A DNA stretch of 64,000 nt, taken from the IMG/VR virus record IMGVR_UViG_3300037245_003639; one strand, 5' to 3'. The stretch is from a virus. Both the position numbers and the translations under genes were made by a program. Shown here one piece after another: positions 8,792 through 42,043 of this stretch. The notes below the pieces were generated by a model. It was not told the DNA's origin. It saw only the letters and a list, made by a program, of their open reading frames with translations, and did no database searches. Every line of letters starts with the position of its first letter. Position 1 is the first letter of the stretch.

Positions 8792-8797
8792 AACGGC

Positions 8798-9147: not shown

Positions 9148-9160
9148 CGTTCGTCTCGGA

Positions 9161-9446
9161 GAAAAAAATCTGCCATGATGCCGACTTACTTTGACTGTCT
9201 GCGAGCTACCGCTCTTGCGTGCTTCCGTTACACCACACCACATAAACACAATATATGCGTCTCATGGATGGACGGATTCGAACCGCCATTTCCAAACCAT
9301 CAAGACGGCGACTACGGAATCGAATCGCAGGAAGTTGGCGCTGCTGTGTAGCCGACCGCATTGTCTGCCGACAATGGGCGGGGTGGCCCTTCCTGGCGAT
9401 ATCCGTCCAAGGCCCGCTCATGGCTTCGACGGGCAGCCGTGTCTCA
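9161..9446 (-). ncRNA. structured small RNA candidate 1 (tRNA-like T-arm module)
   Basis: Promoter 9453..9481 predicts a start near 9446. The transcript contains GGCGGTTCGAATCCGTCC, a T-arm-like hairpin. A 7-bp long-range helix TGGACGG/CCGTCCA (+ coordinates 9403-9409 and 9269-9275) encloses about 141 nt, and there is an internal hairpin CATTGTC-GGCA-GACAATG. It ends with GATTTTTTTC (+ coordinates 9161-9170). Confidence 0.4.
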
Positions 9447-9452
9447 CTCAAT

Positions 9453-9481
9453 TTTATATCGGATAGCAGCCAGATTGTCAA
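9453..9481 (-). promoter_or_regulatory. sigma70-type promoter (TTGACA-17-TATAAA) driving ncRNA candidate 1
   Basis: cccTTGACAatctggctgctatccgaTATAAA. No ORF lies downstream for about 290 nt. Confidence 0.6.
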
Positions 9482-9647
9482 GGGAAATCTCAGACGACGG
9501 GAGCGGAGGGGTGGTCTATCATTGACGAGGCATCCCACGTTCATCGGGCCTTGCGAGCCCTCCAGTGGGCGGTATACGTCCTCTTCCACCTATTACTTTG
9601 CACTCCGCTCTTTCAGCAGCGTCCTGCCTAGTCGCCCGACCATGGTT

Positions 9648-17621: not shown

Positions 17622-18494
17622 TCAACTGGAAGGACCATCTCCCCAACGAAATTTCGTAACTAGGTTATGCCAACGGGGATAATGGGGATTCTGCATGATT
17701 AGAGCGCGTTTCCGAGCGCTCCGCACTTCAAGAATATCCTGTGCATCAAGGTTAAAAACGTCCTGCCCGTCAACGACAACATCTGTTCCTTCATTGACTC
17801 GGACTGCCTCGATACGGATTTGGCTGTCAGCATCCACCACGATCGGGCAACAGTCAAAGGAATGGGCGTTGAGGGGATTGAGGATGATTCCTGGCATTCC
17901 AGGCATCATTACGGGGCCATGAGCGGACAGATTGTACGCTGTAGAGCCTGTAGGTGTCGCCACAATAATGCCGTCCCCACCGACCGTAGCAAGCTCGATA
18001 CCGTCCACAATCAGCTTTAGATAGACCATACGATGCGGGGCGCCAGCGTTGATAACCACGTCATTCAGCGCCCACTGCCACGGTCTCCAATCGCCCAGCT
18101 TGCCTTGAATCCGCATTTGCAGCATAAGTCGCCGTATAATGTTCGCATCTGTGAGTTCTGGCAGTAACTCTTTCAATTCCGCGACTGAAAAAGCGGTCAG
18201 GAATCCGACCTTGCCGAAGTTGACACCAATCAGCGGAACCTGACGTTCTTCCAACTGGCGGGCCACTGACAACATGGTTCCATCACCACCCAGAACGACG
18301 ATGCGGTCTGCATTGTACTTTGGCAAATCGCCAATAGTGAACTTGGAACCCTCCCCAACGGAGTCTACACAGACGAGTTCTCCAACAGACTTTACCAAAG
18401 CCAGAATTTCTGGGAGAGCATCTTGAACTTCTTGCTTCATGAGATTAGAGACAATTGCATATTTCATAGAGTTGCACTCGTGGGATGTTGCCAA
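17622..18494 (-). CDS. nadK: NAD+ kinase
   Basis: GGDGTMLSVARQ, NDVVINAG and DGIIVATPTGSTAYNLSAHGP are the diagnostic NadK/PpnK motifs. Confidence 0.8.
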   Translation of the reverse strand: MATSHECNSMKYAIVSNLMKQEVQDALPEILALVKSVGELVCVDSVGEGSKFTIGDLPKYNADRIVVLGGDGTMLSVARQLEERQVPLIGVNFGKVGFLTAFSVAELKELLPELTDANIIRRLMLQMRIQGKLGDWRPWQWALNDVVINAGAPHRMVYLKLIVDGIELATVGGDGIIVATPTGSTAYNLSAHGPVMMPGMPGIILNPLNAHSFDCCPIVVDADSQIRIEAVRVNEGTDVVVDGQDVFNLDAQDILEVRSARKRALIMQNPHYPRWHNLVTKFRWGDGPSS

Positions 18495-23735: not shown

Positions 23736-25145
23736 TTAATCTTCGGACGTATCATCGTCCGACATTTTCACCAGTCGGGGATGGAAACAAGCGATAATGT
23801 CCACAAGGTCAGTCTGAGCGTCCATGACCTTCAAAATGTCTTTATACGCTCCTGGGACTTCATCCAATCCCGCGGAAATTAGTTTGACATTCCGGTGTCG
23901 TAATTGTTCTCGGACATCAGACCAGCGATACTTTTCCTTAGTTTTTGTTCTGCTCATCGCCCGCCCCGCACCATGCGATGCCGACGATAATGATGCAGCG
24001 TTACCTTTTCCCCGAACAAGAAAACCAGGCGTTGCCATTGAGCCCGGAATGACCCCTAGAACATCCACCCCAGCGGGAGTCGCCCCTTTGCGATGGACAA
24101 TCACAGTCCTGCCATCGTGTTCCTCTCGCCACGCAAAATTATGATGGTTCTCTACCTGTAGCAGAGCATCCCACCCCAATTCACGCAATACATGATAGTG
24201 AATCAGATTATGGTTTGCTGATGCATACTCTCCAGCGAGTTCCATCGCCTTCCAGTAAGCTATGCCATCTTCATCATCCATCGACAACCACGCCAGCCTT
24301 TTATACTGAGGCGGCAGCAAGGGATGTTTCGCTCCTGCAACACGGGTGAAGTGATTGGCCACCTTCGACCCAAGCCCGCGAGAACCGCTATGCGTCAAAA
24401 TGGCTACATACTTACCAGGAGGAACATCTCCAAATTGCTCAGTGAACTCTATTTCACCAACATCGAGGAAGTGATTCCCACTGCCTGATGAACCAAGCTG
24501 ATTCCACGCTCTGTCTTTATCCACAATCCCATCAAGGATAGACCAGTCCCGATCCATTACTTCGTGCTGGCGACGACCTGAACGTTGGAATGCGGCTCCC
24601 AGACCAAAGCGGGTATGCTTCTCGATTGCTTTCGTGATTACAGTTTCTTGCTGCTTGATGGGGTCTCCAGCCGTATCGATGGGGACCACAGATAGCATCA
24701 TGCGACATGCAATGTCTACGCCCACACCATAAGGCATGACAGCATTGTCCATAGCGAGCACGCCACCGATTGGCAAACCATAACCAAGGTGAGCGTCCGC
24801 ACATAAAGCCCCTCTTATCGCAGGCGGAATACTCAGAGCGCGGTTCATCTGATCGATGGTATTTTCATCGATGAAGTCTTTGCCCCAAATGGCTAAGGGC
24901 TTATCTTCGCGGAATGTATACAGTTCTTCTGGGTGGAGAATATTGTACCATAAAGACGCCGCTTCGCCAAAGTGCGCATCGCTTCGTAAAGATGCTGGGT
25001 TGCTAAACAACTCGCGAGCAATCTTCTTGCGAGTTTCAGCACCAACTCCTGCTGTCTTCGCGGATTCCTCGGCTTTCAGCAAAACACCAATCACTGGCCC
25101 TTGCTTGAAGCCAATATTGAGCAATCCTCGTGCCTTGAGTCCCAT
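23736..25145 (-). CDS. rtcB: RtcB-family RNA ligase
   Basis: Diagnostic ENHHNFAW motif, the HNLIHYH stretch, and overall length and composition consistent with 3-phosphate/5-OH RNA ligase. Confidence 0.8.
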   Translation of the reverse strand: MGLKARGLLNIGFKQGPVIGVLLKAEESAKTAGVGAETRKKIARELFSNPASLRSDAHFGEAASLWYNILHPEELYTFREDKPLAIWGKDFIDENTIDQMNRALSIPPAIRGALCADAHLGYGLPIGGVLAMDNAVMPYGVGVDIACRMMLSVVPIDTAGDPIKQQETVITKAIEKHTRFGLGAAFQRSGRRQHEVMDRDWSILDGIVDKDRAWNQLGSSGSGNHFLDVGEIEFTEQFGDVPPGKYVAILTHSGSRGLGSKVANHFTRVAGAKHPLLPPQYKRLAWLSMDDEDGIAYWKAMELAGEYASANHNLIHYHVLRELGWDALLQVENHHNFAWREEHDGRTVIVHRKGATPAGVDVLGVIPGSMATPGFLVRGKGNAASLSSASHGAGRAMSRTKTKEKYRWSDVREQLRHRNVKLISAGLDEVPGAYKDILKVMDAQTDLVDIIACFHPRLVKMSDDDTSED

Positions 25146-25157: not shown

Positions 25158-25616
25158 TCATTCGGTAAATTTCGACAATAACTCTATGGCCTCGGTCTTG
25201 TGGTATTTGAGGAAGCTATCAATCAAGATCGAAACTTGCTCGGCGGTCAGTGGACCGAGCGTATCAGCCCTCTCAGTCACGAGCTTCTTGAGCGTCTTAA
25301 GTCGCTCGGAACTGCTCGGCACCTGATCGATCAAGTCGTGGATTGTTTTCCATGACGACGGCATCGCGGCATACTCGTTTGCGCGTTGCTCAGCCTTCTC
25401 ACTCTCTTGTTGGGCAATGAGAACCGCAAAGAATACGAAGATGACGACCAGGGCCGAGGTGGCGGCCACGGGCTGCCACGCAATTCGCTGATACCAGCGT
25501 GGTGTTGCTCGTGTTGGCTGATACGCGTCAATCTTCTTTCCACAGCGATTACAGAACTTCGCCCCGGGAGTGACCACTGCGCCACAGGATTCGCAGTAAA
25601 GCGTCTTTGACTCCAT
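25158..25616 (-). CDS. membrane-anchored zinc-ribbon protein
   Basis: MESKTLYCESCGAVV...CNRCGKK, then a TM helix. Trimmed behind promoter 25660..25689. Confidence 0.45.
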   Translation of the reverse strand: MESKTLYCESCGAVVTPGAKFCNRCGKKIDAYQPTRATPRWYQRIAWQPVAATSALVVIFVFFAVLIAQQESEKAEQRANEYAAMPSSWKTIHDLIDQVPSSSERLKTLKKLVTERADTLGPLTAEQVSILIDSFLKYHKTEAIELLSKFTE

Positions 25617-25659
25617 CGCTCGCGTCCCTTCTGGTTGCCGCAGTCTTTGTCCAGTGAGC

Positions 25660-25689
25660 ATATTACCAGAGAGAGACCAGATTGTCAAG
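25660..25689 (-). promoter_or_regulatory. sigma70-type promoter (TTGACA-17-TAATAT)
   Basis: ccTTGACAatctggtctctctctggTAATAT. Confidence 0.6.
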
Positions 25690-25857
25690 GATTTTTGCAG
25701 GGTGCTTTACTACTTTCTTGTGTTTTCCAGAACAGTCACACTTCCATAACCTCGGTCGTCTGGGTCTATACTCTCTGCCGCTTCCTGAAACTGTGACAGC
25801 AGCAATAGTGCAACTACCACTCCAAGAAGCAGCAGGAAGACAAACCCTTTCCATACG

Positions 25858-26589
25858 CTATTCATTGTTTGTGCCCACCATGTTTAGGAATACCGCCAGT
25901 TGATTAAGAAACACATGTAGTTCCTTATCACTGGTAAAGACCAGTGTACTGGTATCACCTACTCCCCGTAGTTCTAACGCTGGCTTTCCCTTTGCTTTCC
26001 TTATCTCTGTAGTAGGTAGAAACTTATTGATTGTAGTAAGACTGTCGTTGATTGTACCTGCCCACTTGTCTACCGTTGCATTGCATACCTTGCAACCTGC
26101 CTGTTTCTTCATTCCGCATTTGCAAGGCACTTTGCCTTTGGTACAATCAATGCACTTGCCTTTGACTGTCCTACTCCCTTCACCTAAGCAACGGGGACAG
26201 ACGACAGTGCCTTGGTTGTTGCAAGTGGTGCAAGGTAGTTGTCCACGAGTGCATTTATGACAATCTGTCGTATACTTCTCTATCCACCATTCTCTACGGT
26301 TATATCGGTTGTAGCGTTTACGCGAAGTTGTTATACTGCCACTGCCGTTGCAGACTCCGCATTTCTTGCACCCTTTACCAAAGCATTTATTGCACCTAGC
26401 TATCCCCGCTCCATTGCAACCTGTATTCTCTGTACGCTTGCACGTTACTTGTCTCTCTACTCTGACCCAGTCACCCTTGCAAGTATTACAGATACTCTCG
26501 CCTGTGTTGTTGCAGTCTGTACAGACTTGTCCATGCGCAGGAACAACAACAAACGCCAGCAGCACAACGATTGTCAGTAACGTCCTCAT
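25858..26589 (-). CDS. secreted Cys-rich protein with DnaJ-type CxxCxGxG zinc-finger repeats
   Basis: Signal peptide MRTLLTIVVLLAFVVVPAHG, then repeated CxxCxGxG units (CNGAGIARCNKCFGKG, CGVCNGSGS, CTTCNNQGTVVCPRCLGEGS). Confidence 0.55.
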   Translation of the reverse strand: MRTLLTIVVLLAFVVVPAHGQVCTDCNNTGESICNTCKGDWVRVERQVTCKRTENTGCNGAGIARCNKCFGKGCKKCGVCNGSGSITTSRKRYNRYNRREWWIEKYTTDCHKCTRGQLPCTTCNNQGTVVCPRCLGEGSRTVKGKCIDCTKGKVPCKCGMKKQAGCKVCNATVDKWAGTINDSLTTINKFLPTTEIRKAKGKPALELRGVGDTSTLVFTSDKELHVFLNQLAVFLNMVGTNNE

Positions 26590-26607
26590 ATCTTATCTCC
26601 AGTCGTT

Positions 26608-28128
26608 CTAACGTCTATACACTCCTAACAACGCAGCCAAGTCCGAAAGGTCTACGTCTCCATCAAAGTCAAAGTCTCCCTCGGCTGGCGTCGTATCCCC
26701 GGTCTCTCTGTAGTGGCTGAGGAGTGCGGCGAGGTCAGAGAGATCTACATCCCCATCTCCATCCATATCACCAGGACGATGCGAAGCGTATTCATCGGCA
26801 CCCATGTCCACCAGCCAGCCAGACCCGCCATCCCAAACGCGCAATTGACCGTCCATATCACGCTCATAGAGTGAGTACAGAACATCAGGATCGCCGGTAT
26901 CAATACAGGGAGAACCTGACAACAGATGCCCCTCGCTGCCCAGTAGAGGGTCGAGAGCGATAGAAGTATCGTGGTCCCAAAGAAGCACGCCGCCCGGGGT
27001 GATAAAAACCCCATACCAGCCATATTCGACATCAGAATATGAGACTGTGACGGTGCCGGAACTGCTAATGGCTATTTCCGCCCCCTCATTTGCTGTATCT
27101 CCCCATAAAATCGAATTCACTAGATAAACATCGCCGCGGTAGTCGCAGTGGACGCCGCCGCCACGATCGAAAGCCGTGTTCCCCGTGATCGTGCAGTTGG
27201 TGATGGTTATGTCGGAGTAGTAGTCGCAGTGCGCCCCACCGCCGCCGTCGTCAGCCGTATTCCCACTGATTGTGCAGTTGGTCAGCGTCGCGCTGCTGTT
27301 TTCACTGCAATGGACGCCGGCGCCGGACCCGCCCATGTTGTCGCTGATCGTGCAGTTGGTCAGCGTCGCGCTGGAGGAGTAATAACAGCTAATGCCGCCG
27401 CCGAAGGAGCTTGCCGTGTTCCCCGAGATCGTGCAGTTGGTAATCACCGAGCTGGAGTCGCGGCAGTAGATGCCCCCGCCGTAGCCGTCTGCCGTGTTGT
27501 CGTTGATCGTACAGTTTGTGAGCGTGGGGCTGCCGATCCGACAGTAGACGCCGCCGCCGTAGACTGCCGTGTTGTCGTTGATTGTGCAATTTGTAATGGT
27601 CGGACTGGAGGAGTCGTTGCAATAGACGCCGCCGCCGTTTGTGCTTGCCGTGTTCCCAATTATTATGCAGTTTATAATAACCGGGCTGGATGAGTTGATG
27701 CAGCGGATACCACCGCCATAATCGCTAACCTGCCCATTAGTAATAGAAAATCCATTCACCACGGAATCAGGCCCTTCACCAAACCTGAAATAGAACCCCC
27801 TGCCATCACCTTCGCAATCGATGACGCAATTAGCAGCTCCGTTCTCGGAGCGCACCGTGACCGCCTTACCGCCAAAGTCCAGGTTTTTGTTGAAAAGCCC
27901 CGTATAACGCCCATTGGCCACCAGAACAGTATCGCCATCTTGACAAAGGAAGATAGCTTCCTGAATAGCATCGAACGGATGCTCGACAGAACCATCCTCC
28001 AGTGGGTCACTAACCATCGGATCGCCGGGACCGGGGTCACTGGGTGCATTGTCATCAACATACCAAGTGGTTTGGCTCCAGGCAGGAGCAATAACGAATA
28101 ACAAAACCGAAAGAGTGAGATATCTCAT
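26608..28128 (-). CDS. secreted parallel beta-helix repeat protein with C-terminal dockerin
   Basis: Signal peptide, NCTI(S/N)(G/D)NTA beta-helix repeats, and C-terminal DMDGDGDVDLSDLAALL plus DFDFDGDVDLSDLAALL (type-I dockerin Ca-binding repeats). Confidence 0.7.
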   Translation of the reverse strand: MRYLTLSVLLFVIAPAWSQTTWYVDDNAPSDPGPGDPMVSDPLEDGSVEHPFDAIQEAIFLCQDGDTVLVANGRYTGLFNKNLDFGGKAVTVRSENGAANCVIDCEGDGRGFYFRFGEGPDSVVNGFSITNGQVSDYGGGIRCINSSSPVIINCIIIGNTASTNGGGVYCNDSSSPTITNCTINDNTAVYGGGVYCRIGSPTLTNCTINDNTADGYGGGIYCRDSSSVITNCTISGNTASSFGGGISCYYSSSATLTNCTISDNMGGSGAGVHCSENSSATLTNCTISGNTADDGGGGAHCDYYSDITITNCTITGNTAFDRGGGVHCDYRGDVYLVNSILWGDTANEGAEIAISSSGTVTVSYSDVEYGWYGVFITPGGVLLWDHDTSIALDPLLGSEGHLLSGSPCIDTGDPDVLYSLYERDMDGQLRVWDGGSGWLVDMGADEYASHRPGDMDGDGDVDLSDLAALLSHYRETGDTTPAEGDFDFDGDVDLSDLAALLGVYRR

Positions 28129-28376
28129 GTTTTTCTCCGACCGCCCCGTTTACCCAATTCCAGTGATTTGTCAGGACCGTAGAAAATATACTGCACTACT
28201 TCGACGCTGACCGTGTGGCCATGTGCTTTGGCATGTCTCGCTGCAACGCCCTGAGCATTCAGACTGGACCATTCCTTCTCACAGTCTTGGCATACTGCAA
28301 AAATGCATCGGCGACCCAGTTTGTAGCTCATGTCAATCCTACCAGCTAATTCCGTAGTCTCCAAGCAAGTCGGCAA
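28125..28376 (-). CDS. small zinc-binding protein
   Basis: CIFAVCQDCEKEW...HAKAHGH. The start is uncertain because the ORF overlaps its neighbour. Confidence 0.3.
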   Translation of the reverse strand: MPTCLETTELAGRIDMSYKLGRRCIFAVCQDCEKEWSSLNAQGVAARHAKAHGHTVSVEVVQYIFYGPDKSLELGKRGGRRKT

Positions 28377-29115
28377 GGTCGCTTAGATCGACGCACCCAT
28401 CACCGTCGAAATCAGCGTCAGGGTTGTAGTCATCATCGCCGGTGCATGAGAAGTAGGCCGCTAACAGCGCGGCGAGGTCGGAGAGATCCACGTCACCGTC
28501 ACCATCGATGTCGCAGATCACAACGACTTCCAGATCATCTATCCATACATCATCATGATGTTCCGGTATGTAATTCCCAAGACTGAGTTCAACAGAGTAG
28601 ATAGCATTACCTTCCGTAGATATACCAAATCGCCGACTATGTCCGTCACCTCCTCTGGATGGTTGTATTTGATGAAGTGGGTTACCTTCGGCATCAAACG
28701 CAGTTATAAGAGTACCCCATCCCTCTGCTGATGCTTCGAGATCAATGAAGCTTGCGCTTACAGATTGAACTCCCCGTGGACTGCCGCTGATTGGATCGAC
28801 AAACCGTAACCGAAAAATCCCCGAAACCCAAACCTCGCCAGGGATGACCCCAATGGAAGGGGCTGGAATCAGTACGTGGCCCAAATACTCTCTACCATCA
28901 CCATACACATTTTGCATAGTTTGTCCATTTTGCACGGACGGCAGTTGAGACTCGTCAGGATCTCCCAGGTGAGAAATGGGTTCGAAAACGATTCCCACAC
29001 TCATCAACTGGTTCGCCAGGATAGTTCCCACGGGGAATGTATCAAAATTCACAGTTGTCGTCGAGCCTCCATAGGCCACAGCCGCGAGCAAGAACGATAC
29101 CAAAGTCGCTTTCAT
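28339..29115 (-). CDS. secreted protein with C-terminal dockerin
   Basis: MKATLVSFLLAAVAYGG signal peptide behind a GGAGG RBS. C-terminal DIDGDGDVDLSDLAALLAAY and DFDGDGCVDLSDLADLL. Confidence 0.65.
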   Translation of the reverse strand: MKATLVSFLLAAVAYGGSTTTVNFDTFPVGTILANQLMSVGIVFEPISHLGDPDESQLPSVQNGQTMQNVYGDGREYLGHVLIPAPSIGVIPGEVWVSGIFRLRFVDPISGSPRGVQSVSASFIDLEASAEGWGTLITAFDAEGNPLHQIQPSRGGDGHSRRFGISTEGNAIYSVELSLGNYIPEHHDDVWIDDLEVVVICDIDGDGDVDLSDLAALLAAYFSCTGDDDYNPDADFDGDGCVDLSDLADLLGDYGISW

Positions 29116-29167
29116 AGTTTGCCTCCAGAGAATCACAGAATCATAACCAGGACTACTGCCGAGATGT

Positions 29168-29196
29168 ATGCTACCAGAGATAGAGAAGATTGTCAA
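29168..29196 (-). promoter_or_regulatory. sigma70-type promoter (TTGACA-17-TAGCAT)
   Basis: ccTTGACAatcttctctatctctggTAGCAT. It lies in a roughly 47-bp block that is duplicated at 29684-29730. Confidence 0.6.
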
Positions 29197-29221
29197 GGCT
29201 TTTTTCAGGGTGCCTCATCTC

Positions 29222-29674
29222 TCAAGCACATTGGATACCAGCAACAATCGAGACCAGCACAATTACAGCCGCGACCCCGACGACTACCGGCGCATGTCGG
29301 CCACTCAATTCTCGACATCGGCGACATGCTACTTGGCCCTGCGCCTTCATAGCCGCCATCGCCCTCTGTCTGTTCTCCTTCCACTCCGCTCTCAGTTCAT
29401 TTTCTCTCTGGAGTTGCTCTTGGCATTCCCTTTGTTGTCGCGCCGCTTGTTCGTTATCTTGTTCCTTACGCTTCTTTATCACAGCATCCGGGATGGCGGG
29501 CACTGCCGCAATCGCGATGAGCGCAAGTAGACTAAAAAAGAATCCCACCGCAAACCACCCGCCAGGATCTCGGTTTTTCTGGCCTGCGATGTAGGCGCAA
29601 AACCCACCCATCACAACACCCCCAGCAAGCATTAGGATCAACAAGAGTCCTACCGGCAACTCATCCATAGCCAT
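29222..29674 (-). CDS. membrane protein
   Basis: Three TM helices and a Gln/Arg-rich coiled segment. Confidence 0.45.
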   Translation of the reverse strand: MAMDELPVGLLLILMLAGGVVMGGFCAYIAGQKNRDPGGWFAVGFFFSLLALIAIAAVPAIPDAVIKKRKEQDNEQAARQQRECQEQLQRENELRAEWKENRQRAMAAMKAQGQVACRRCRELSGRHAPVVVGVAAVIVLVSIVAGIQCA

Positions 29675-29684
29675 CCTCCAGTAA

Positions 29685-30245
29685 TTATATGCTACCAGAG
29701 ACAGACGAAATTGTCAAGGCTCTTTTAGAGTGTCCAATTTTCTCCATTAGTTTCTCCATAAAATCGGCCACTTTTCTTAGTTCCTCCGCCGTCGCATCAC
29801 TTTTTATAGTGTTCGCCCGATGGCTGATAATCTGAACATTTCCCTTAACGTATCCTTCTGATGGGACAATTCGATCCACTGTAGGAGAGTTGTGTCCGGC
29901 ACCACCTGAGTTGATTTCGAGTGTGTAACCAAGAACAGGACATTTTTCCGGAACCTTAACATCATCATGAGTCAAATTAAACGGAAGCCCTCGTTTTTTT
30001 GCCCGAGTCTTTGTTTGGTACAGCAGATAGGATTCAGGATTCCGCCTGATTTCTGCCCGCTTATACGCCCGCATAGCATCGGGATCTTTCTTATACTTAC
30101 CATTGTAGCTCTTTAGGGCTCTGGCAATCTCCTGGCCTCGATTTTCAACGTAATAACGTTTTAGATAATCCTTACACTTGGAACATGTTTTCAAACCATT
30201 GAAATCGGACTCTGGGCGGTCTTGTCCACATCTGGAACAAATCAT
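29685..30245 (-). CDS. HNH endonuclease
   Basis: CSRCG...CSKC zinc ribbon plus GHNSPTVDRIVPSEGYVKGNVQIISHRAN (the H-N-H core). Its last 10 codons overlap the promoter copy at 29688..29716. Confidence 0.65.
   Translation of the reverse strand: MICSRCGQDRPESDFNGLKTCSKCKDYLKRYYVENRGQEIARALKSYNGKYKKDPDAMRAYKRAEIRRNPESYLLYQTKTRAKKRGLPFNLTHDDVKVPEKCPVLGYTLEINSGGAGHNSPTVDRIVPSEGYVKGNVQIISHRANTIKSDATAEELRKVADFMEKLMEKIGHSKRALTISSVSGSI
29688..29716 (-). promoter_or_regulatory. sigma70-type promoter (TTGACA-17-TAGCAT), the duplicated copy
   Basis: ccTTGACAatttcgtctgtctctggTAGCAT. Confidence 0.55.
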
Positions 30246-30312
30246 GGCAATCTCCTGTCAAAAGCCTATTGATACTTAGGCTTTCGACGAAAGAGATGTC
30301 TGTTCCTTTATT

Positions 30313-31257
30313 TTATCCAAAAAAGTCATCGGCGTGGATGAATTGGAATCCGCATCGAGAGGCGAAGGTGCGATCTGTCGTCTGATCCCCCACCATTATT
30401 GAGTCACTCGGGGACAGGTTATGTTTCATAATGAACTGGACGCCCAATCCGCTCATTGGTTTGCGACAGTAGCAGTTGATGGGAGCAGGGTTATGAGGAC
30501 AGTAGGCATACTCAATGTCTACCTGGAGCTTCCTATTCGTAATATCAAAGCAAGCTCTAGCTTGCTCATCAGTTGGGCTCCCCTTGGCCACTCCGCTCTG
30601 GTTGCTGACGCCGAGTAAGGCGTAGCCCTCTTTTTCATACTTACGCAGGACAGCCGCCCGCCCTGGAAGAACCACAACTTGCTTCGGGTCTGTAGGCCAC
30701 TTCAACTCTGCCCCATTAGTATCTTCGCTTACCCGGAGAGTGCCATCGTAGTCCAAGATGATAGCGGCGTTCGTCCACTTTGCGGGAAAGCCCCGCATAA
30801 ACGGTCGCCTGTCAACTCGATGGAAGCCCTCAGCTACAGTGGGCGCCTGGAACTGCTTGCGGTAATTGAACAACACAGCAGTGGGAAACATATTTGGGCT
30901 GGAATGCTTTTTGATTTCCTCAGGCATCAACAGTCTGCCTTCACGCTCGATCATCCGCACGCAAGCGTTGAATTGAGCGTCTTCGATGGTGGCTGTGAGC
31001 CAGTCACAAATGACTGTAACATCGAATTTTTTGGCAGCCTCAAGGAAGGGTTTGCGGCTCTCGACTGTAGGGAAGGTGTTGTCGAGAACAACGTCTTTGC
31101 CCGCTTTGAGAGCGGCCACCATCTTGGGAACCAAATCAGCTACTTTGCCCCCGGCCTTATCTCGATTGAGATAGACAAAACCCTGCTCTGTATAGGCCGA
31201 GGCGATTGAGGACTTACCCGCAGCGGGATAGCCCATTACCATAACGACTCGTGGCAT
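30313..31257 (-). CDS. pnkp: T4-type polynucleotide 5-kinase / 3-phosphatase
   Basis: N-terminal P-loop GYPAAGKSS (kinase) and C-terminal ILDYDGTL (the DxDGT HAD-phosphatase motif), in the same order as T4 Pnk. Confidence 0.7.
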   Translation of the reverse strand: MPRVVMVMGYPAAGKSSIASAYTEQGFVYLNRDKAGGKVADLVPKMVAALKAGKDVVLDNTFPTVESRKPFLEAAKKFDVTVICDWLTATIEDAQFNACVRMIEREGRLLMPEEIKKHSSPNMFPTAVLFNYRKQFQAPTVAEGFHRVDRRPFMRGFPAKWTNAAIILDYDGTLRVSEDTNGAELKWPTDPKQVVVLPGRAAVLRKYEKEGYALLGVSNQSGVAKGSPTDEQARACFDITNRKLQVDIEYAYCPHNPAPINCYCRKPMSGLGVQFIMKHNLSPSDSIMVGDQTTDRTFASRCGFQFIHADDFFG

Positions 31258-31264
31258 CAGATTC

Positions 31265-31489
31265 TCACGTTGCAAAGTAGATGACGACAGTAACGACAGT
31301 AATCAAAGCAGCTAGTCGAACGTAGATGCGGGCTTCCATGCCATTCACGCCATTCACGCCATTCACGACTTCCGCTCGCAGTTTCTCGTAACAATCCGGA
31401 CTAATGTCGCCGTTGGCAAGAGCTTCGGCAAAATGCACCGTGTGGCCCGGTGACTGTATCGTCTCCGCAATCAGCTTCTGGCTGTCCAT
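31265..31489 (-). CDS. hypothetical protein
   Basis: 74 aa with a C-terminal TM segment. Confidence 0.35.
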   Translation of the reverse strand: MDSQKLIAETIQSPGHTVHFAEALANGDISPDCYEKLRAEVVNGVNGVNGMEARIYVRLAALITVVTVVIYFAT

Positions 31490-31890
31490 CAGTCTTCCTT
31501 TGAGGCTTTCACGATACGAGGCATGGTTTGGTCTGGAACTTTGTAGAAAGCGACGTAATACTTCTTGTCTTCTACCATGCTGTTGTAGAGTTCCAGGTCT
31601 GTGGTTTCTTCTGAGCCTTCACAGAGCCAAGTCTTTTGTTTGTCATCTACGACGAAGAATTGTTCCTTGTGCTCTCTCTTCTCGGCGATGGTAATGAAAC
31701 AACGCTGTAGATTCTGCTGGGCTTCCTCAACTTGTTCGAGTTCTCTTGCTCGATTGATAGAAGGGATGAGGATTGAAGCACAGAGCGCGACAATAGCCAC
31801 CACCACGATGAGTTCGAGTAGCGTGAAGCCTTTAGTCGGGATAGAGCTTTTGGCGTGCCTCATTGAGTTTCTCCGATACGAACTCAGCAA
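31489..31890 (-). CDS. prepilin-type (type IV pilin or pseudopilin-like) protein
   Basis: KGFTLLELIVVVAIVALCASILIP is the classic prepilin N-terminal cleavage and methylation segment. Confidence 0.6.
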   Translation of the reverse strand: MLSSYRRNSMRHAKSSIPTKGFTLLELIVVVAIVALCASILIPSINRARELEQVEEAQQNLQRCFITIAEKREHKEQFFVVDDKQKTWLCEGSEETTDLELYNSMVEDKKYYVAFYKVPDQTMPRIVKASKED

Positions 31891-32059
31891 GCAGACTGCC
31901 TTCTACATCTCCGTCGTAGAATTTGGCCAACAGTGCGTCATCCCCTGGCTCGTCCTCAGTTTCTGGGACGCCATCTCGTTCTAAAAGCTCCCAGCATTCG
32001 TCCTCGTGATTACAGCGGAAATACAGTTTGCGAACATCGTAGGTTTCTTGAAGTTTCAT
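31832..32059 (-). CDS. small acidic hypothetical protein
   Basis: 75-aa ORF. Confidence 0.35.
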   Translation of the reverse strand: MKLQETYDVRKLYFRCNHEDECWELLERDGVPETEDEPGDDALLAKFYDGDVEGSLLAEFVSEKLNEARQKLYPD

Positions 32060-32098
32060 TCTCGCCCTCAGTGATGGATGAATTCCTCGGGCGGAATG

Positions 32099-32184
32099 AA
32101 AAAAATCAACGTGGGAGATATGTTCCCGGCTACACCACCGACCCTATGGATCGAGCAGGATTCGAACCCGCCATCTTCTCCCAC
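32099..32184 (-). ncRNA. tRNA-like small RNA candidate 2 (74-nt cloverleaf-like core plus U-tract)
   Basis: Promoter 32191..32219 puts the start exactly at GTGGGAG. The RNA forms a 7-bp terminal helix GTGGGAG/CTCCCAC enclosing three hairpins, the first being GCGGG-TTCGAAT-CCTGC (a T-arm consensus), and ends in GTTGATTTTTTTC. It shares the motifs ATGGCGG(G)TTCGAATCC, GGTGTA(A/G)C(C)GG and GATTTTTTTC with candidate 1. Confidence 0.5.
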
Positions 32185-32190
32185 ATTTCT

Positions 32191-32219
32191 ATCATACCAT
32201 ATGTACCTGAGACTGTCAA
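32191..32219 (-). promoter_or_regulatory. sigma70-type promoter (TTGACA-17-TATGAT) driving the tRNA-like RNA
   Basis: ccTTGACAgtctcaggtacatatggTATGAT. Confidence 0.65.
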
Positions 32220-32234
32220 GGGAAATCCTGAGTG

Positions 32235-32804
32235 TTACGGGACTTCCGGAGCAGTGATAGTCACGAATTTCTTGAGCATGTCCGTGAGCGGCACAGACTG
32301 TCCCATGGCGGAACTATCGGAAAAAGCCTGATTGACAATGCGAGTGAAACCTGTCAAGCCCAAAGACGGAAGATCCTCGGCATTCTCCAGGAAAACGCCA
32401 AGCGTCAGCAAGCGGGCTTCTTGGTTGACGTAACCCTCCATCTCGCCCATGCTATCGTAGAGAACTTTCCACGCTCCCGGCAGATCATCATTCAACGCCG
32501 CTTCGCCAGCTTCGATGACGTTGCCGATGCAGAAGATAGCTCCACCCAGAATCACTGAAACCATCGTCACGGTGAACACGAGTCTGCCAATCACGCCCGG
32601 ATGCTCTTTCATGTAGGCTCGGGCTTTCTTGACGCGGAAGCCTACCACGCGCATGAATCCAGCCAGCAAAACCAGCCCACCAGCAGCCATCCAGCCCCAC
32701 GACAGGAAACCCTGCCATAGAGCCCGCATCGCAACAGGGTCAAACGCGATTTGTACCCCGTTCTCTGTCCATTCAGCGTCCATTTCGGAACTCCAAGTAG
32801 TCAA
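32235..32804 (-). CDS. membrane protein
   Basis: Several TM helices (WGWMAAGGLVLLAGFM, LVFTVTMVSVILGGAIFCIG). Confidence 0.45.
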   Translation of the reverse strand: MTTWSSEMDAEWTENGVQIAFDPVAMRALWQGFLSWGWMAAGGLVLLAGFMRVVGFRVKKARAYMKEHPGVIGRLVFTVTMVSVILGGAIFCIGNVIEAGEAALNDDLPGAWKVLYDSMGEMEGYVNQEARLLTLGVFLENAEDLPSLGLTGFTRIVNQAFSDSSAMGQSVPLTDMLKKFVTITAPEVP

Positions 32805-33090
32805 TTACAGTCCCAGGCAAGAGATGTTTCGGATCCCATCTCCACGTAACCAGTGCGAACATGGGCCAGCAACAGGCCCATAATATCAATGCTTCGGGAT
32901 ACATCAGGAAACTACGGATGAAATGCACAGAGAGCTTCTTCAACTCAAACTTACCTGAGATAGCTTCGTCGAGTCGGAGCATCAGAGCATAGCAGCGTTG
33001 CAAATAAGCAGCGGCTGCCAGCTTGACACAAACCCAACCGATAATCAGGCTGGCCGTTGAAAACTCGATGACAATGCGGTCTTCATCCAT
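32773..33090 (-). CDS. membrane protein (leaderless)
   Basis: Trimmed to MDEDRIV, 7 nt downstream of the TATTAT of promoter 33098..33126. Confidence 0.4.
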   Translation of the reverse strand: MDEDRIVIEFSTASLIIGWVCVKLAAAAYLQRCYALMLRLDEAISGKFELKKLSVHFIRSFLMYPEALILWACCWPMFALVTWRWDPKHLLPGTVIDYLEFRNGR

Positions 33091-33097
33091 AAACACG

Positions 33098-33126
33098 ATA
33101 ATACCCGTCTTTGAGAAGATTGTCAA
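33098..33126 (-). promoter_or_regulatory. sigma70-type promoter (TTGACA-17-TATTAT)
   Basis: gacTTGACAatcttctcaaagacgggTATTAT. Confidence 0.6.
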
Positions 33127-33833
33127 GTCTTTGAGTCTGTCTTTTCTTCATCTTCTGGCTCCCCTTCATAAAGAGGGGCAAGCTCGAAGGATGGCTCGGG
33201 TTGGCTCGGAGTGTAATCGTCCAACCTTAGCTCTCCATGGGCCTTGAGCCCCACAGCCCAAGTTTGGTTCAATGTCAAAAGTCGAGGGTCTACAATAACA
33301 TCTCCAACATCACGTTTGCATTTACTGCATTCCAAGACATGGATAAAAGGTCTACGGGCCACAATATCATCTCTTGTCCATGACTTCAATTGTTCCACAC
33401 CGCATTCGAGACATTGCCATTTGATATAGGCGGTAGGAATGGCTGGTTTATTGTAGTGAGGTTTATGATCCTCTACATATGTCGCGAGAATACGGGGCAA
33501 CTTGGATGGAGGGGTTTTATCAAAGGGATGGCCACAGACTGGACAGAACTTTACGTTCTTTTGGACAATGATGACGTTACAATTAGGGCAGCGTGGCTTA
33601 TAGCTGTCGATTTGCGGTATCAGTTCCGCAGCAAGTTGTTGGACAGTGGGCGGCGTCCACTTGGGTGGTTCCCAATCCGCTTTTTCCTCTAGCGCATTGA
33701 TTTTGTCGCGTAGCTCCCAATAATTCCTGGACTCCCTAGCAATCCGAGCAGTTTGTTTGGCGAGCACTACTGATACCGCGATGATAAACCCTACAAAGGC
33801 GGCAATAGAGAATCCTATCCACACGGCAATCAT
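33123..33833 (-). CDS. membrane-anchored protein with zinc ribbons
   Basis: N-terminal TM segment, then CPNC...CPVCGH and CLECG...CSKC. Confidence 0.45.
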   Translation of the reverse strand: MIAVWIGFSIAAFVGFIIAVSVVLAKQTARIARESRNYWELRDKINALEEKADWEPPKWTPPTVQQLAAELIPQIDSYKPRCPNCNVIIVQKNVKFCPVCGHPFDKTPPSKLPRILATYVEDHKPHYNKPAIPTAYIKWQCLECGVEQLKSWTRDDIVARRPFIHVLECSKCKRDVGDVIVDPRLLTLNQTWAVGLKAHGELRLDDYTPSQPEPSFELAPLYEGEPEDEEKTDSKT

Positions 33834-34011
33834 GGCTCTGCTCGTTTGAAATTCCGTAATACCGCACGTACTCGCAGTTGTAATCGAGACCACCGTGATC
33901 TTTGCCGCCTGGGTGGCTTATTTGCTCGGCATACAGCAAGCATCGTCAGCATCGGCAGGGCAAACGGTAAACGTTTGATCCGAGCCTCAAGTTCTTGATC
34001 ATTCATTCCAC

Positions 34012-34494
34012 TCATGGTTGCTCGTCATCAGACTTAGTTTTCCTGCCGGGCAGATGTGCTTTTAACGCATTCAAGGCTCCACGAGCGCCGCCTCGAATCC
34101 CGGCTCCCACGCCAGCAAGATTTGCGGCTCGCCGTTCGACAGTAAGATCGTCGCTTGTATATTCTTCTCCATCAGGCCCCCAAGACCGAACTTCAACGGT
34201 CTCCATTCCTCCACCACGAGAATACAAGGCCACAAGACTGTTACCCCACGGGTCTATCTCAGGCAGAATATGCTTTGGCTCATCATTGTCTGGTCGCTTG
34301 TAAACGCCAGCATCTGTTGTCTGGCTATCCAGATTGGCTGCCCATTTCGTGCAGAGATTCTTGGCGGTCTCAATTTGCGCAGCGTTCTTCGCGGCGTTCT
34401 CGTTCATCTTCCAAATTGCAGCGCAGCCAAAGACAAGAATCACAAGGACTGTGACCCCTAGAGCAGCGTAATGTTTGTTCCCGTCTTTGTTCAT
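34012..34494 (-). CDS. membrane-anchored GspG-like (pseudopilin-domain) protein
   Basis: A signal-anchor, then PEIDPWGNSL and SWGPDGEEY, which resemble the DPWGN and SxGxDG motifs of type II secretion pseudopilin GspG. Confidence 0.4.
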   Translation of the reverse strand: MNKDGNKHYAALGVTVLVILVFGCAAIWKMNENAAKNAAQIETAKNLCTKWAANLDSQTTDAGVYKRPDNDEPKHILPEIDPWGNSLVALYSRGGGMETVEVRSWGPDGEEYTSDDLTVERRAANLAGVGAGIRGGARGALNALKAHLPGRKTKSDDEQP

Positions 34495-34591
34495 CCTTAA
34501 TCCTCTAAAGCTTTGGACCAACTTGCCCTAAACGTATTCCCTTCGGGCAACATCTGATCTCGGGTATGGTGATACAGTTCTTTCCTTCTGG

Positions 34592-34841: not shown

Positions 34842-35477
34842 CTAATATCTTTCCGAAGTGATATCGCGATATTTAAGCTTGAATTGGCAACGCGACTTCT
34901 TCGAGCTATTTAGGTCAAGTTGCAACTTACCGCGTTTCTTCTTTAGCACAATGCCTTCGGTGAGATGCATTCCCATGCCACCTGCGATCCAGTCGTCCTT
35001 GAGTTCATTGAAGTGGCCAAAGAAATCATTCTCGCGGGTCTCGGCCAAACAGACATCCTGCCCGTTGGCAAGGTCTTGACAACGAGCCCAACGCTCGACG
35101 TATGGTTCATTGGGCAACCATGCGTCATCCCACGCCAAACAGTCGAAGATGTAAACCCGAGGTTCATGGCCTCCCCGTGGACCCACGAACTCAGCATCAA
35201 TGACTGTCTCATCAGGAATGGGCAGCCGCAGCAACTGTTGGATGATGACTTCGGGCATCTTCGATCTGGCACTGATAAAGCGCCCCACCCGAGACAGTAG
35301 CGACATACCGGCTGGAGTTTGACCATCAGGCAACAGGATCATACCTGCCGATTTGTAGATTTCCAAACGCCAGCCATCATATTTGTGCTGACTGAGCCAT
35401 TCATGGGGGCGCAGGGTAGGCAATAACTCTGGTGTGCATTCCTTGGGCTTATCTGGATGACGAAAGCGCTTGAGCAT
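34842..35477 (-). CDS. minimal ATP-dependent polynucleotide ligase (DNA-ligase-like nucleotidyltransferase)
   Basis: Motif I KYDGWR (KxDGxR), motif III VIDAEFV, motif IV EGIVLKKK and motif V FKLKYR. Confidence 0.6.
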   Translation of the reverse strand: MLKRFRHPDKPKECTPELLPTLRPHEWLSQHKYDGWRLEIYKSAGMILLPDGQTPAGMSLLSRVGRFISARSKMPEVIIQQLLRLPIPDETVIDAEFVGPRGGHEPRVYIFDCLAWDDAWLPNEPYVERWARCQDLANGQDVCLAETRENDFFGHFNELKDDWIAGGMGMHLTEGIVLKKKRGKLQLDLNSSKKSRCQFKLKYRDITSERY

Positions 35478-36631: not shown

Positions 36632-37453
36632 TTAGCGTCCATGCTGAAAAAAAGCATTTTTACTGAGTGACCCAGACGACACTCGGGCTTGGCTGGTCGA
36701 GATTACCGACTGCGAAACTGTACCGAAGACTCGACGAATACCCGTGCCATCCAAGCTTGAAGTTAGACGATGATGACGAGGGAACCCAATTTCATTAGCC
36801 GCTCCATCACCATCGTTCTCCTCGCCAAAGAACACGTAGGCCAGTACAAACTCCTGGGCCTTTAAAACATCCGCCGTCAGATTGCGGACTTTTGTCTGGC
36901 CCACCAGCGAGGCGTTCTCCCAGCCATCAGACAAAACGACCACAATCGATTTCGTGCGGGTTCCGTTGTCTCGCAAAGTCTGACCGTAGCTTACCAACCC
37001 GGTAATTCCCTTGAAAACCGCGTCAAACAGTGGGGTCATACCGTTCGGTTGATAATCAGCGTCGGTCAGTTCAGGACATTGAGGGACCGGCGTAAAACCA
37101 TGAATCAGCCGCACATTATCCTTGGGCTCACCGATACGAGAGAAAGCCCATACAGAGACCAAAATCGACTCAGCATTCTTGGCCCCCTTGAGCGGCTCAA
37201 GAAACTGTTCTTTGTACTGCTTGAGAACTTCGGCCTGATAAGGATTCATCGAATCGCTGGCGTCAAGCAGAACCACGACCAAGGTCACTTCTTCCGAATC
37301 GATCTCATCCACGTCCACGCCCGCGCATCCAGCCAGAGCGATATCGTCCAACTCTGTCTCGATGGCTGCTTGTGAAGCAGAACTGATGATACCCGCCGAG
37401 GCCGCATTCGCAAGCGTTGCGGCCACCTGGGGATTGCTTACAGATGAAACCAT
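36632..37453 (-). CDS. von Willebrand factor A (vWA) domain protein
   Basis: The MIDAS motif DASDS in VVVLLDASDSM, plus the downstream LSDGWEN. Confidence 0.65.
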   Translation of the reverse strand: MVSSVSNPQVAATLANAASAGIISSASQAAIETELDDIALAGCAGVDVDEIDSEEVTLVVVLLDASDSMNPYQAEVLKQYKEQFLEPLKGAKNAESILVSVWAFSRIGEPKDNVRLIHGFTPVPQCPELTDADYQPNGMTPLFDAVFKGITGLVSYGQTLRDNGTRTKSIVVVLSDGWENASLVGQTKVRNLTADVLKAQEFVLAYVFFGEENDGDGAANEIGFPRHHRLTSSLDGTGIRRVFGTVSQSVISTSQARVSSGSLSKNAFFQHGR

Positions 37454-41018: not shown

Positions 41019-41805
41019 TTAATCTCTCCGCAGTTATGATGGAACAATCGTCCTCGAAATATCCCCTATCGGAACGACTGTTCATCCACTTCTTAAGCCC
41101 GAATTGACCCGTCTTTCCCCATTGTTGATTGAAAAGGACAGGCGTTAATTCGGAATGCTTCTGCATGGAGAGGCTAAGTTTATGTTCATTGTGATGGCTG
41201 AAACCATCAGAAGCCACCATGACCCGTTTGGTATTGGCATCGAATGATAGCGTTTCAAAAGCCATGGGAATTACATCAGGACCGACTCCCACACTGCCGG
41301 GGTCTCGCAAACAATGATAGGCCAGATAATGTGGAACATTCTGCTGGTCAAGCTCGTGGTGGTAATCGTCACAAGCGTAGATGCCGTCACCGCAATGGAA
41401 TATGATTCCGCTTCCTTCACGGGGGATAATGAACCCCATCATAGTAGCCAGCCAATGATGCTTGACGTAATAGGCGATTTGCTGAGGGGTCTCTATAGGA
41501 CATGCCAAATGCACCTGCATATCAACGAAACGGGTCAAACTCCCGAACAATGTGGTCACAATTTCATCAGAAGTAAACCCCATACGATGCAAGCGAGAGA
41601 CTTCGGACAAAGCAAAATTGCACAACATACGAGCGCCAACTTCGGAATAATCACCTGAACCGCAGCCATCACAACCTATGCCGCAGATAATTTCATCGGA
41701 AGCGAAAAAGTCAGCCGCATCTTGGCAGTTGGCTCCCTTGTAAAGGTGATGATGACCTACCTTGACAGCGGCACTCACTGTCCATCGGTCTGTATCAACT
41801 CTCAT
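40996..41805 (-). CDS. PP2C-family Ser/Thr phosphatase
   Basis: NCQDAADF, IGCDGCGSGD and VASDG are the PP2C metal-binding Asp motifs. Confidence 0.65.
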   Translation of the reverse strand: MRVDTDRWTVSAAVKVGHHHLYKGANCQDAADFFASDEIICGIGCDGCGSGDYSEVGARMLCNFALSEVSRLHRMGFTSDEIVTTLFGSLTRFVDMQVHLACPIETPQQIAYYVKHHWLATMMGFIIPREGSGIIFHCGDGIYACDDYHHELDQQNVPHYLAYHCLRDPGSVGVGPDVIPMAFETLSFDANTKRVMVASDGFSHHNEHKLSLSMQKHSELTPVLFNQQWGKTGQFGLKKWMNSRSDRGYFEDDCSIITAERLNAEDHTP

Positions 41806-41812: not shown

Positions 41813-42043
41813 CTATGTGCGAATGGCACGTTTAATGCTGCGGGTTCGGCGTTGTTTTGGAGTCACAGTTCTGGAACGGCTTCGCTTAACAGGGCGTCCA
41901 TCATTTAGGGCATCTTGATAAATCTGATGAGCCCTGGCACGAGAGACTCCTAGTTCGTCCGCGATTTCTCGGAAAGTCATTTTCTTCTGTGAACGCAGAG
42001 TCAGAACTTTTCGATACCTACGATTACGTTCGTACGGCTTCAT
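41813..42043 (-). CDS. small sigma-70 region-4-like HTH protein
   Basis: MTFREIADELGVSRARAHQIYQDAL resembles region 4.2. No region 2 is present. Confidence 0.5.
   Translation of the reverse strand: MKPYERNRRYRKVLTLRSQKKMTFREIADELGVSRARAHQIYQDALNDGRPVKRSRSRTVTPKQRRTRSIKRAIRT

Follow-up and report, generated by a model that had tools for sequence, protein, structure and literature searches.

A close conceptual precedent for the locus described here is viral. A putative ANME-2 virus contig encodes a NosD-like beta-helix protein with a signal peptide, adjoining dockerin domains, and adhesion to the host surface during infection was one of three hypotheses offered for it (ISME J 2026, PMC13452462). 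On the cellular side, a hypothetical "planctosome" has been proposed from bioinformatic analysis of freshwater Nemodlikiaceae, a non-cellulolytic cohesin-dockerin complex in which a cohesin scaffold tethered to the outer membrane holds dockerin-bearing secreted proteins (Andrei et al. 2019, PMC6461901). We analyzed a 64,000-nucleotide window, the whole stretch of DNA presented here from IMG/VR virus record IMGVR_UViG_3300037245_003639, in which two genes of one operon, P1 and P2, encode predicted exported proteins ending in dockerin-type repeats. At a probability of roughly 55%, we consider that a host-derived, early-expressed operon of the moron type, carried by a probable huge phage, puts dockerin-anchored binding proteins on the envelope of the infected cell.

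As in the ANME-2 case, a NosD/CASH-type beta-helix protein with a signal peptide and a dockerin is virus-encoded, and its best matches lie in the presumed host lineage. The ANME-2 example comes from an archaeal virus with S-layer genes, whereas here the presumed host is bacterial (Planctomycetota) and the element is probably a huge phage. In addition, two dockerin-tagged proteins share one operon here, with an early-promoter context and evidence of anchor swapping; both cases are known from sequence. We regard the present case as a new bacterial (planctomycete, huge-phage) example of a recently recognised viral kind, for which this precedent exists. P1 and P2 also resemble planctosome components in being planctomycete-type secreted proteins with dockerin modules. 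The planctosome proteins are peptidases with no phage involvement, whereas those described here are beta-helix and jelly-roll proteins in a probable phage.

The initial annotation of the window had placed two open reading frames (ORFs) at 26608..28128 and 28339..29115, and both were present there, on the minus strand. Leaders were called by an n/h/c signal-peptide rule (positively charged n-region, h-region of 8-15 hydrophobic residues, small residues at -3 and -1), and structures were predicted with AlphaFold2 (AF2). The two genes and their parts are as follows.

26608..28128, minus strand: P1 coding sequence, 506 amino acids (aa) plus stop (ORF translation, Pfam, NCBIfam, AF2)
28075..28128, minus strand: predicted P1 leader, residues 1-18 (n/h/c rule and family conservation)
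26974..27981, minus strand: P1 right-handed beta-helix, residues ~50-385 (Pfam, AF2)
26779..26967, minus strand: P1 choice-of-anchor-Q-like linker, residues 388-450 (NCBIfam, below cutoff)
26611..26775, minus strand: P1 dockerin-type pair, residues 452-506 (loop scan, Pfam Dockerin_1)
28339..29115, minus strand: P2 coding sequence, 258 aa plus stop (ATG at 29115, GGAGG 7 nt upstream)
29062..29115, minus strand: predicted P2 leader, residues 1-16/18 (n/h/c rule)
within 28339..29115, minus strand: P2 beta-sandwich N-domain, residues ~19-198 (AF2)
28342..28518, minus strand: P2 dockerin-type pair, residues 200-258 (Ca loops at 28477..28512 and 28378..28413)

A longer, TTG-initiated version of the P2 ORF was rejected as a reading artefact of the promoter region; P2 begins at the ATG at 29115.

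A six-frame scan of the 64 kb with the pattern D-x-D-x-D-G-x-V-D-x-x-D-L-x-x-L-L revealed exactly four loops, two in P1 (residues 454-465 and 485-496) and two in P2 (residues 202-213 and 235-246). All four loops (DMDGDGDVDLSD, DFDFDGDVDLSD, DIDGDGDVDLSD and DFDGDGCVDLSD) carry Asp at positions 1, 3, 5, 9 and 12, followed by LAxLL. As in cellulosomal type I dockerins (PF00404), each module comprises two ~22-residue segments in which a 12-residue Ca2+ loop is followed by a helix, with Asp/Asn at positions 1, 3, 5, 9 and 12, a loop spacing of 31-33 residues and a C-terminal position on a secreted protein. Unlike cellulosomal dockerins, the P1 and P2 modules occur without a cellulosome context, and their loop positions 10-11 are Leu-Ser. 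In C. thermocellum dockerins, Ser-Thr at positions 10-11 contacts cohesin.

Against Pfam Dockerin_1, with a gathering cutoff of 22.9 bits, P1 was borderline at 23.3 bits (residues 452-500), whereas P2 fell below at 16.3 bits. This hidden Markov model check had been set beforehand as a refuting test of the initial annotation, whose dockerin assignment came through it marginally for P1 and not for P2. P2 also scored below the EF-hand_1 and EF-hand_6 cutoffs. A profile of 27 modules, including those of P1 and P2, was searched against all PDB sequences, and the top matches were cellulosomal dockerins over both segments: 2y3n_B (B. cellulosolvens Cel48, E = 1.6e-11), ScaH 8ajy (8e-9), Xyn10B 1ohz (4e-8) and CelS 1daq (1.3e-7), with further dockerin matches to 5lxv, 4fl4 and 2ccl. 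Calmodulin EF-hand pairs came next at ~1.6e-7, a small margin below some of the dockerins. In the AF2 model, the C-terminal module of P1 has helices at 463-471 and 494-502 (pLDDT 75-90), each following a loop, and no helix precedes the first loop; this is the F-hand arrangement. Because the closest PDB matches are dockerins and the layout is of the F-hand type, the term dockerin-type pair is justified at the level of sequence and predicted structure; the modules are read as Ca2+-binding, with cohesin binding predicted at most. The four loops and the ranking of dockerins as best matches bear out the claim of the initial annotation that both proteins carry the same pair. A canonical calmodulin-like EF-hand reading was ranked below the dockerin one, since true dockerins outscore calmodulin across both segments, each of the four loops has Asp at position 12 and the prediction contains no entering helix. 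The modules of P1 and P2 share 79% DNA identity with many synonymous differences, and a recent duplication of the module between the two genes was rejected on these grounds.

Database searches revealed more than 7000 relatives of P1, named right-handed parallel beta-helix repeat, predicted outer membrane repeat protein or choice-of-anchor Q proteins. The closest relatives are collinear with P1 from leader to C-terminus, with 52-58% identity over aligned columns. As judged from these alignments, P1 is a full-length member of a known, greatly expanded planctomycete cellular family of PMP-repeat/choice-of-anchor Q beta-helix surface proteins. It shares with the Planctomycetota proteins the mature N-terminus QTTWYVDD, rungs with Cys/Asn ladders, VDMGA-E and a GDxDGDGDVDLxDLAxLL pair. 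It differs from them in being encoded, behind a promoter of the phage class, within an early region that is phage-like, and in lacking the terminal 'YGTTC' Cys of most relatives. The GSPCID...VDMGA-E motif is kept in the P1 family and NCBI names the P1 homologues choice-of-anchor Q; the choice-of-anchor Q domain model (NF041518) scored 21.9 bits at residues 401-447 of P1, under its 25-bit cutoff. Among the best 120 P1 homologues, 49 end in a dockerin pair and a further 18 have a single loop; others carry a C-terminal domain of the type IX secretion system (T9SS) type or a transmembrane (TM) segment with a basic tail. Read from their sequences, the tails of the family form a "choice of anchor" pattern.

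Similar exchange was observed among the relatives of P2. In the initial homology search of P2, all matches were driven by the dockerin pair. When the N-domain (residues 1-198) was searched with HMMER against 1.84 billion representatives, one real relative (P0241; 52% identity, E = 4e-37) and five marginal ones (E ~1e-5) were found. P0241 sits on a cellular contig, adjoining a sulfatase and a peptidase. P0241, P0242, P0245 and P0246 share the P2 N-domain and then carry PEP-CTERM exactly where P2 has its dockerin pair. PEP-CTERM (PEP motif, TM helix and basic tail) is absent from P1 and P2. P2 therefore resembles PEP-CTERM/exosortase proteins through an N-domain common to PEP-CTERM-ending relatives, and differs from them in lacking the motif and in ending with a dockerin pair that has no transmembrane segment. 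The presence of PEP-CTERM at the dockerin position in P2 relatives implies that the C-terminal module has an equivalent role in surface sorting. The most informative result of the analysis is that, in the relatives of both P1 and P2, the dockerin pair occupies the slot of an interchangeable C-terminal surface-sorting or anchoring module. Since the pair is interchangeable with PEP-CTERM or T9SS-type anchors in these relatives, the module most likely tethers P1 and P2 to the envelope.

The N-termini of both proteins, MRY-LTLSVLLFVIAPA-WS^QT in P1 and MK-ATLVSFLLAAVA-YG^GS in P2 (the caret marks the predicted cleavage site), satisfied the n/h/c rule, which is heuristic. The rule was passed by 10 of 103 window ORFs, including P1, P2 and a third gene of the same operon, g48; several of the others are small membrane proteins. 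In the alignment of the P1 family, the first ~20 residues are variable and hydrophobic, and the alignment becomes strictly conserved from the predicted cleavage site onward (...AQA^QTTWYVDDDAP). Because conservation starts at this point, which is the behaviour of a cleaved leader, the leader of P1 is well supported. Predicted Sec-type leaders on P1 and P2, as in the initial annotation, are thus well supported by the heuristic rule together with this conservation.

The beta-helix repeats reported earlier for P1 were confirmed with Pfam, in which Beta_helix (PF13229) scored 94.5 bits against a 25.9 cutoff, NosD 54.9 against 23.6 and Chlam_PMP 44.6. In NCBIfam, TIGR03804 scored 59.9 against 19.45, and parallel beta-helix repeats and POMP repeats were also matched. 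The AF2 model of P1, with an overall pLDDT of 85, is a regular and confident beta-helix of ~13 rungs (pLDDT >94). A Foldseek search against solved structures returned the fucoidan lyase FdlA, a PL9 rhamnogalacturonan lyase, RbmB, AlgE4, Pel9A and tailspikes; all are beta-helix proteins, and the matches are generic and weak (E ≥3e-5, TM-score ≤0.44, identity ≤17%). For P2, AF2 gave a beta-sandwich model of moderate confidence (pLDDT 65), and Foldseek matched it to the carbohydrate-binding modules (CBMs) CBM4-2, CBM29 and CBM51 and to the gingipain K2 adhesin domain at a TM-score of ~0.5. In this model the N-domain of P2 is a jelly-roll, CBM- or lectin-like domain. A tblastn search of P2 in deposited phage genomes returned nothing.

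These folds bear on a reading in which P1 and P2 form a secreted glycan-degrading pair, P1 being a lyase or hydrolase and P2 its carbohydrate-binding helper, both dockerin-tethered. Such a pair would feed the infected host as auxiliary metabolism, or would loosen capsule or matrix for the escape of progeny. The best fold matches of P1 (FdlA, the PL9 lyase, RbmB, AlgE4 and Pel9A) speak for it, as do the match of many P1 homologues to Pfam Pel9A-like_beta_helix and the resemblance of the P2 N-domain to CBM4, CBM29 and CBM51. Classical dockerins, moreover, tether glycan-degrading enzymes. However, the fold matches of P1 are weak (E 1e-5 to 1e-3), the Pel9A-like model gave no match on P1 itself at E ≤0.1, and the model of P2 is of moderate confidence. 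The very regular PMP-type rungs of P1 are typical of adhesins. Among 36 family members, no charged residue was conserved at ≥70% in P1 rungs 120-350, the central region where lyase and hydrolase grooves are sited; only Gly/Cys/Asn/Ile ladders were found. Rungs of this kind weigh against a conserved catalytic groove and favour a binding or structural role. The most likely role for the beta-helix of P1 is that of a non-catalytic binding or coat protein, not of a depolymerase, and we consider the glycan-degrading pair unlikely.

The conserved charged residues of the P1 beta-helix are confined to its first two rungs (D66, D84, R93, D104, E106, R110 and E118). These residues, at 66-118, could form a small site for ligand binding at the N-terminus of the helix.

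The initial annotation had also called P1 tailspike-like, and this raises the reading that P1 is a virion tailspike or depolymerase whose dockerin pair docks it onto the particle or onto a host receptor. P1 shares the right-handed parallel beta-helix, the classic tailspike fold, with tailspike depolymerases (P22 gp9, CBA120 TSPs and Det7), and CBA120 TSP3, P22 and Det7 were among its fold matches (E ≥1e-5, identity ≤15%). Some IMG/VR contigs, such as L120, encode dockerin pairs without leaders, which would also suit a virion protein. Among predicted viral structures, P1 came closest to beta-helix proteins of a giant virus and of a siphovirus, the latter with an S-layer-homology anchor; tailspikes ranked lower. 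Unlike tailspikes, P1 carries a Sec leader and lacks an N-terminal particle-binding domain, its beta-helix beginning ~30 residues past the cleavage site; there is no evidence of a trimer, and the groove has no conserved catalytic residues. A cleavable Sec leader takes a protein out of the cytoplasm, where tailed-phage particles assemble, and the early-type promoter, the non-structural neighbours and the collinearity with cellular proteins also argue against a virion role. P1 had no PHROG match, no tblastn match in 50,697 deposited phage genomes and no close IMG/VR relative, so the term tailspike-like is true of its fold alone. The expectation of the same annotation that proteins with Sec signals are not virion tailspikes agrees with the leader and the dockerin pair. 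We consider a virion tailspike very improbable; P1 and P2 most likely are not parts of the particle and instead alter the surface of the infected cell.

The genes lie in a tightly packed operon in the order P2, 68-aa ORF, P1, g48, with Shine-Dalgarno (SD) sites, within a larger cluster. The features of the operon, its promoter class and the cluster are as follows.

29168..29196, minus strand: putative near-consensus sigma-70-type cassette promoter upstream of P2, ccTTGACA-N17-TAGCAT with extended -10 TG
28125..28331, minus strand: 68-aa ORF with CxxC...HxxxH and no leader, a gene called by JGI on contig L001; its stop overlaps the P1 start (ATGA)
25858..26589, minus strand: g48, last gene of the operon, 243 aa, predicted leader MRT-LLTIVVLLAFVVVPA-HG^Q; GGAGA ribosome-binding site 18 nt after the P1 stop
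25158..34521, minus strand: putative early-gene cluster rich in exported and membrane proteins (leader and TM counts)
33126, 32219, 29717, 29196 and 25688, minus strand: promoter-class sites in the cluster (consensus match)
1382, 3563, 4564, 13046, 21882, 23717, 25688, 29196, 29717 and 33126, minus strand: examples of the promoter class (consensus match)
56033, 59458 and 63585, plus strand: further examples of the promoter class (consensus match)
31489..31890, minus strand, in the cluster: prepilin-type protein with a GFTLLE motif (N_methyl and TIGR02532)
34012..34494, in the cluster: "GspG-like" ORF (T2SSG, weak)

TTGACA-N17-TAnnnT sites occurred 29 times in the window against 0.38 expected, and the cassette promoter is one of them. 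The class has the consensus ccTTGACAATCT-N-TGnTAnnnT, and nearly all sites are co-oriented with genes, at about one per 2 kb. As read from sequence and spacing, the array is consistent with the strong host-sigma-70 promoters that lytic phages typically have in their early region, from which early timing would follow. The class resembles a regulon of phage early promoters, and its sites could mark out the early transcription units of the element.

A leader or TM segment is present in 11 of the 16 cluster genes, compared with 13 of 62 elsewhere (Fisher p 5e-4). The prepilin at 31489..31890 that had been reported before was recovered, with N_methyl at 28.6 against 21.2 and a TIGR02532 match. The GspG-like protein reported at 34012..34494 is a weak match, with T2SSG at just 16.4 bits against a cutoff of 21. 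The leader score of g48 was the highest in the window, and the leader is followed by DnaJ-like CxxCxGxG Cys repeats; no homologue of g48 was found in a database of 5.8 billion proteins. The JGI gene caller called just the last 84 codons of g48. The 68-aa ORF had no match in Pfam, NCBIfam or PADLOC. The ORFs flanking the closest cellular homologue of P1 (L124) are not homologous to the 68-aa ORF or to g48.

The viral identity of the window was judged from its gene content, since the 64 kb yielded neither a capsid or portal gene nor a clear terminase. The exact P1 and P2 proteins lie on a 403,172-bp contig of JGI. The 96 ORFs of the window matched 25 Pfam families, none of them housekeeping, and about three quarters of the ORFs had no Pfam match. 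Phage-typical families were RtcB, polynucleotide kinase (PNK), ATP-dependent ligase, endonuclease VII, HNH, sigma-70 region 4, PARP, intein, GH108, NAD kinase and PP2C. An SPFH protein in the window has matches in crAss-like phages, Vibrio phages and a 462-kb uncultured phage, and the RtcB and PNK genes share ~50% identity with genes from IMG/VR contigs as long as 527 kb. No tRNA was found in the window.

It might be argued that the window is a planctomycete genomic island, a plasmid or a degraded prophage, in which P1 and P2 would be ordinary host surface proteins. P1 is typical of a cellular family and its closest relatives are on cellular contigs, one of them beside an integrase and transposases; the missing virion genes and the lack of an exact IMG/VR match to the contig fit the same picture. 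Against this stand the absence of housekeeping genes among 96 ORFs that are mostly small and without homologues, the phage-type content (RtcB/PNK/ligase, endonuclease VII, HNH, intein, SPFH and GH108), the RtcB and PNK relatives on long viral contigs, and the dense array of 29 uniform promoters co-oriented with genes. The GC content of the window, ~49%, also speaks against a host island, being lower than expected for Phycisphaerae. We consider a non-phage origin improbable. By gene content the element is very probably viral, a judgement kept short of certainty because of the missing capsid, portal and terminase genes, and it is probably a huge phage.

Host lineage was examined with a P1 scan of species-representative genomes that used an 8-sequence alignment. 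Of the 80 best P1 loci, 75 belonged to Planctomycetota lineages (Phycisphaerae, Sedimentisphaerales, Planctomycetales and Pirellulales) and one to Verrucomicrobiota. Single metagenome-assembled genomes carry 13 to 17 or more P1 paralogues. The inspected contexts of P1 homologues are cellular, and one of the closest relatives adjoins an integrase and transposases. Judged from these matches, the host is most likely a member of Planctomycetota; the earlier proposal of a Planctomycetes- or Verrucomicrobia-type host is retained in its first part, and the single locus in 80 lends little to the second. On a cellular JGI contig, L126 (Ga0568914_0003004), three adjacent exported proteins (1426, 498 and 304 aa) at 3435..10592 carry near-identical dockerin pairs. 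This pattern suggests that the module is homogenised within a genome and that dockerin-tagged genes cluster in the host lineage.

The distribution of the operon among viruses was narrow. The same locus was present in a second assembly at 99.92% identity, with its ORFs intact. In 31 related viral loci (597 kb) there was no dockerin loop and no beta-helix repeat protein, and searches of IMG/VR with an exact 50-mer and with P1 returned nothing. A scan of IMG/VR with the module profile detected dockerin-like pairs, set in other architectures, on at least 8 viral contigs, so viral dockerins are rare, not unique. Dockerin modules appear to recur sporadically in uncultivated viruses. One such contig, L120 (IMGVR_UViG_3300019487_000022, 124 kb), has at 5019..6008 an N-terminal planctomycete-type dockerin pair without a leader, and the viral contigs L116 and L121 have C-terminal dockerin pairs.

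The absence of the cassette from related viral loci would be expected if P1 and P2 were neutral passengers, that is, recently captured host DNA without a phage function. The GC content at third codon positions of P1, 0.61 against a window mean of 0.51 (standard deviation 0.066), is somewhat high and hints at foreign origin. Neutral passage, however, sits badly with four intact ORFs under their own phage-class promoter, with SD sites and translational coupling, and with the identical ORF structure in the second sample. The two dockerin modules differ by many synonymous changes, with the protein motif kept. The nearest cellular relatives are only 52-58% identical, so the capture was not recent. 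Neutral passage is the least probable of the explanations considered, and we give it very little weight.

A course of events can be proposed for the envelope-anchored binding proteins that we favour. Soon after infection, the sigma-70 RNA polymerase of the host would transcribe P2, the 68-aa ORF, P1 and g48, as the promoter class suggests. The Sec pathway of the host would export P2, P1 and g48 and their leaders would be cleaved, in line with sequence and family conservation. P1, as a beta-helix, and P2, as a CBM- or lectin-like protein, may then serve as surface binding proteins, tethered by the Ca2+-binding dockerin pair, in its planctomycete version, to an envelope component that presumably holds the host's own dockerin-tagged proteins. 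The phage would thereby add binding or adhesin-type proteins of its own and remodel the surface of the infected cell. Such proteins might alter how cells adhere or aggregate, hide receptors from superinfecting phages or capture glycans. When ten proteins of the cluster were screened with PADLOC for known defence systems, nothing meaningful emerged, and superinfection exclusion is thus without support from homology.

Several observations weigh against this proposal. The early timing of the promoters is read from sequence alone, and the signal peptides rest on the heuristic rule and on conservation. P2 fails the Dockerin_1 cutoff and P1 passes it by 0.4 bits, and calmodulin-type EF-hand pairs are only about four orders of magnitude behind true dockerins. 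At E ≤1e-5, the 96 ORFs of the window yielded no cohesin domain, and hence no cohesin partner. Polysaccharide lyases are the closest PDB fold matches of P1, which lends some weight to an enzymatic role. Virion genes are missing from the 64 kb, and the cassette, which the 31 related viral loci lack, does not represent a conserved phage function.

A more specific version of the proposal is tentative. In it, the phage would export host-mimicking dockerin-tagged proteins early, occupying the docking sites of the host envelope and re-programming the surface, for example by excluding superinfecting phages or by altering attachment to particles. If this were true, the dockerins of the phage would be matched to a specific host scaffold, and would provide both a marker for host prediction and a handle for finding the partner of planctomycete dockerins.

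Other genes of the window complete the picture of the element.

23736..25145, 30313..31275 and 34842..35477, minus strand: RNA-repair set flanking the cassette, RtcB ligase (264 bits), PNK/phosphatase (AAA_33 and PNK3P) and an ATP-dependent ligase domain
59477..61114, plus strand: PARP catalytic and WGR domains (545 aa)
17622..18494, minus strand: NAD kinase
52196..55909, plus strand: 1237-aa protein with internal GH108 lysozyme and PG_binding_3 (residues ~650-800)
40996..41805, minus strand: PP2C phosphatase
41813..42043, minus strand: 76-aa sigma-70 region-4 protein
36632..37453, minus strand: VWA-domain protein
47165..49861, minus strand: AAA-type ATPase, 898 aa, interrupted by an intein with a LAGLIDADG homing endonuclease (PHROG and phage matches)

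The RNA-repair set is probably a counter-measure to host anticodon nucleases, and the PARP protein and NAD kinase suggest manipulation of NAD or of ADP-ribosylation. The GH108 protein may be an ejected or virion-associated lysin and is the sole structural-looking gene of the window. Possible roles of the PP2C, sigma-70 region-4 and VWA genes are host takeover or regulation. The intein-bearing ATPase was considered as a terminase and rejected, since its PHROG "terminase" matches are weak and its phage matches are mostly to the intein.

The value of the finding is limited by the close conceptual precedent and by the lack of conservation of the cassette among related phages. Planctomycetota encode very many dockerin-tagged exported proteins and have very few characterised phages. 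That a phage carries two dockerin proteins behind an early promoter suggests that a portable signal for surface anchoring, one worth hijacking, resides in the module, and P1 and P2 offer a compact two-protein test case for what planctomycete dockerins bind. They also add a bacterial example to the proposal of virus-encoded adhesion to the host surface, and provide a clue to the host lineage of an uncultivated 403-kb phage.

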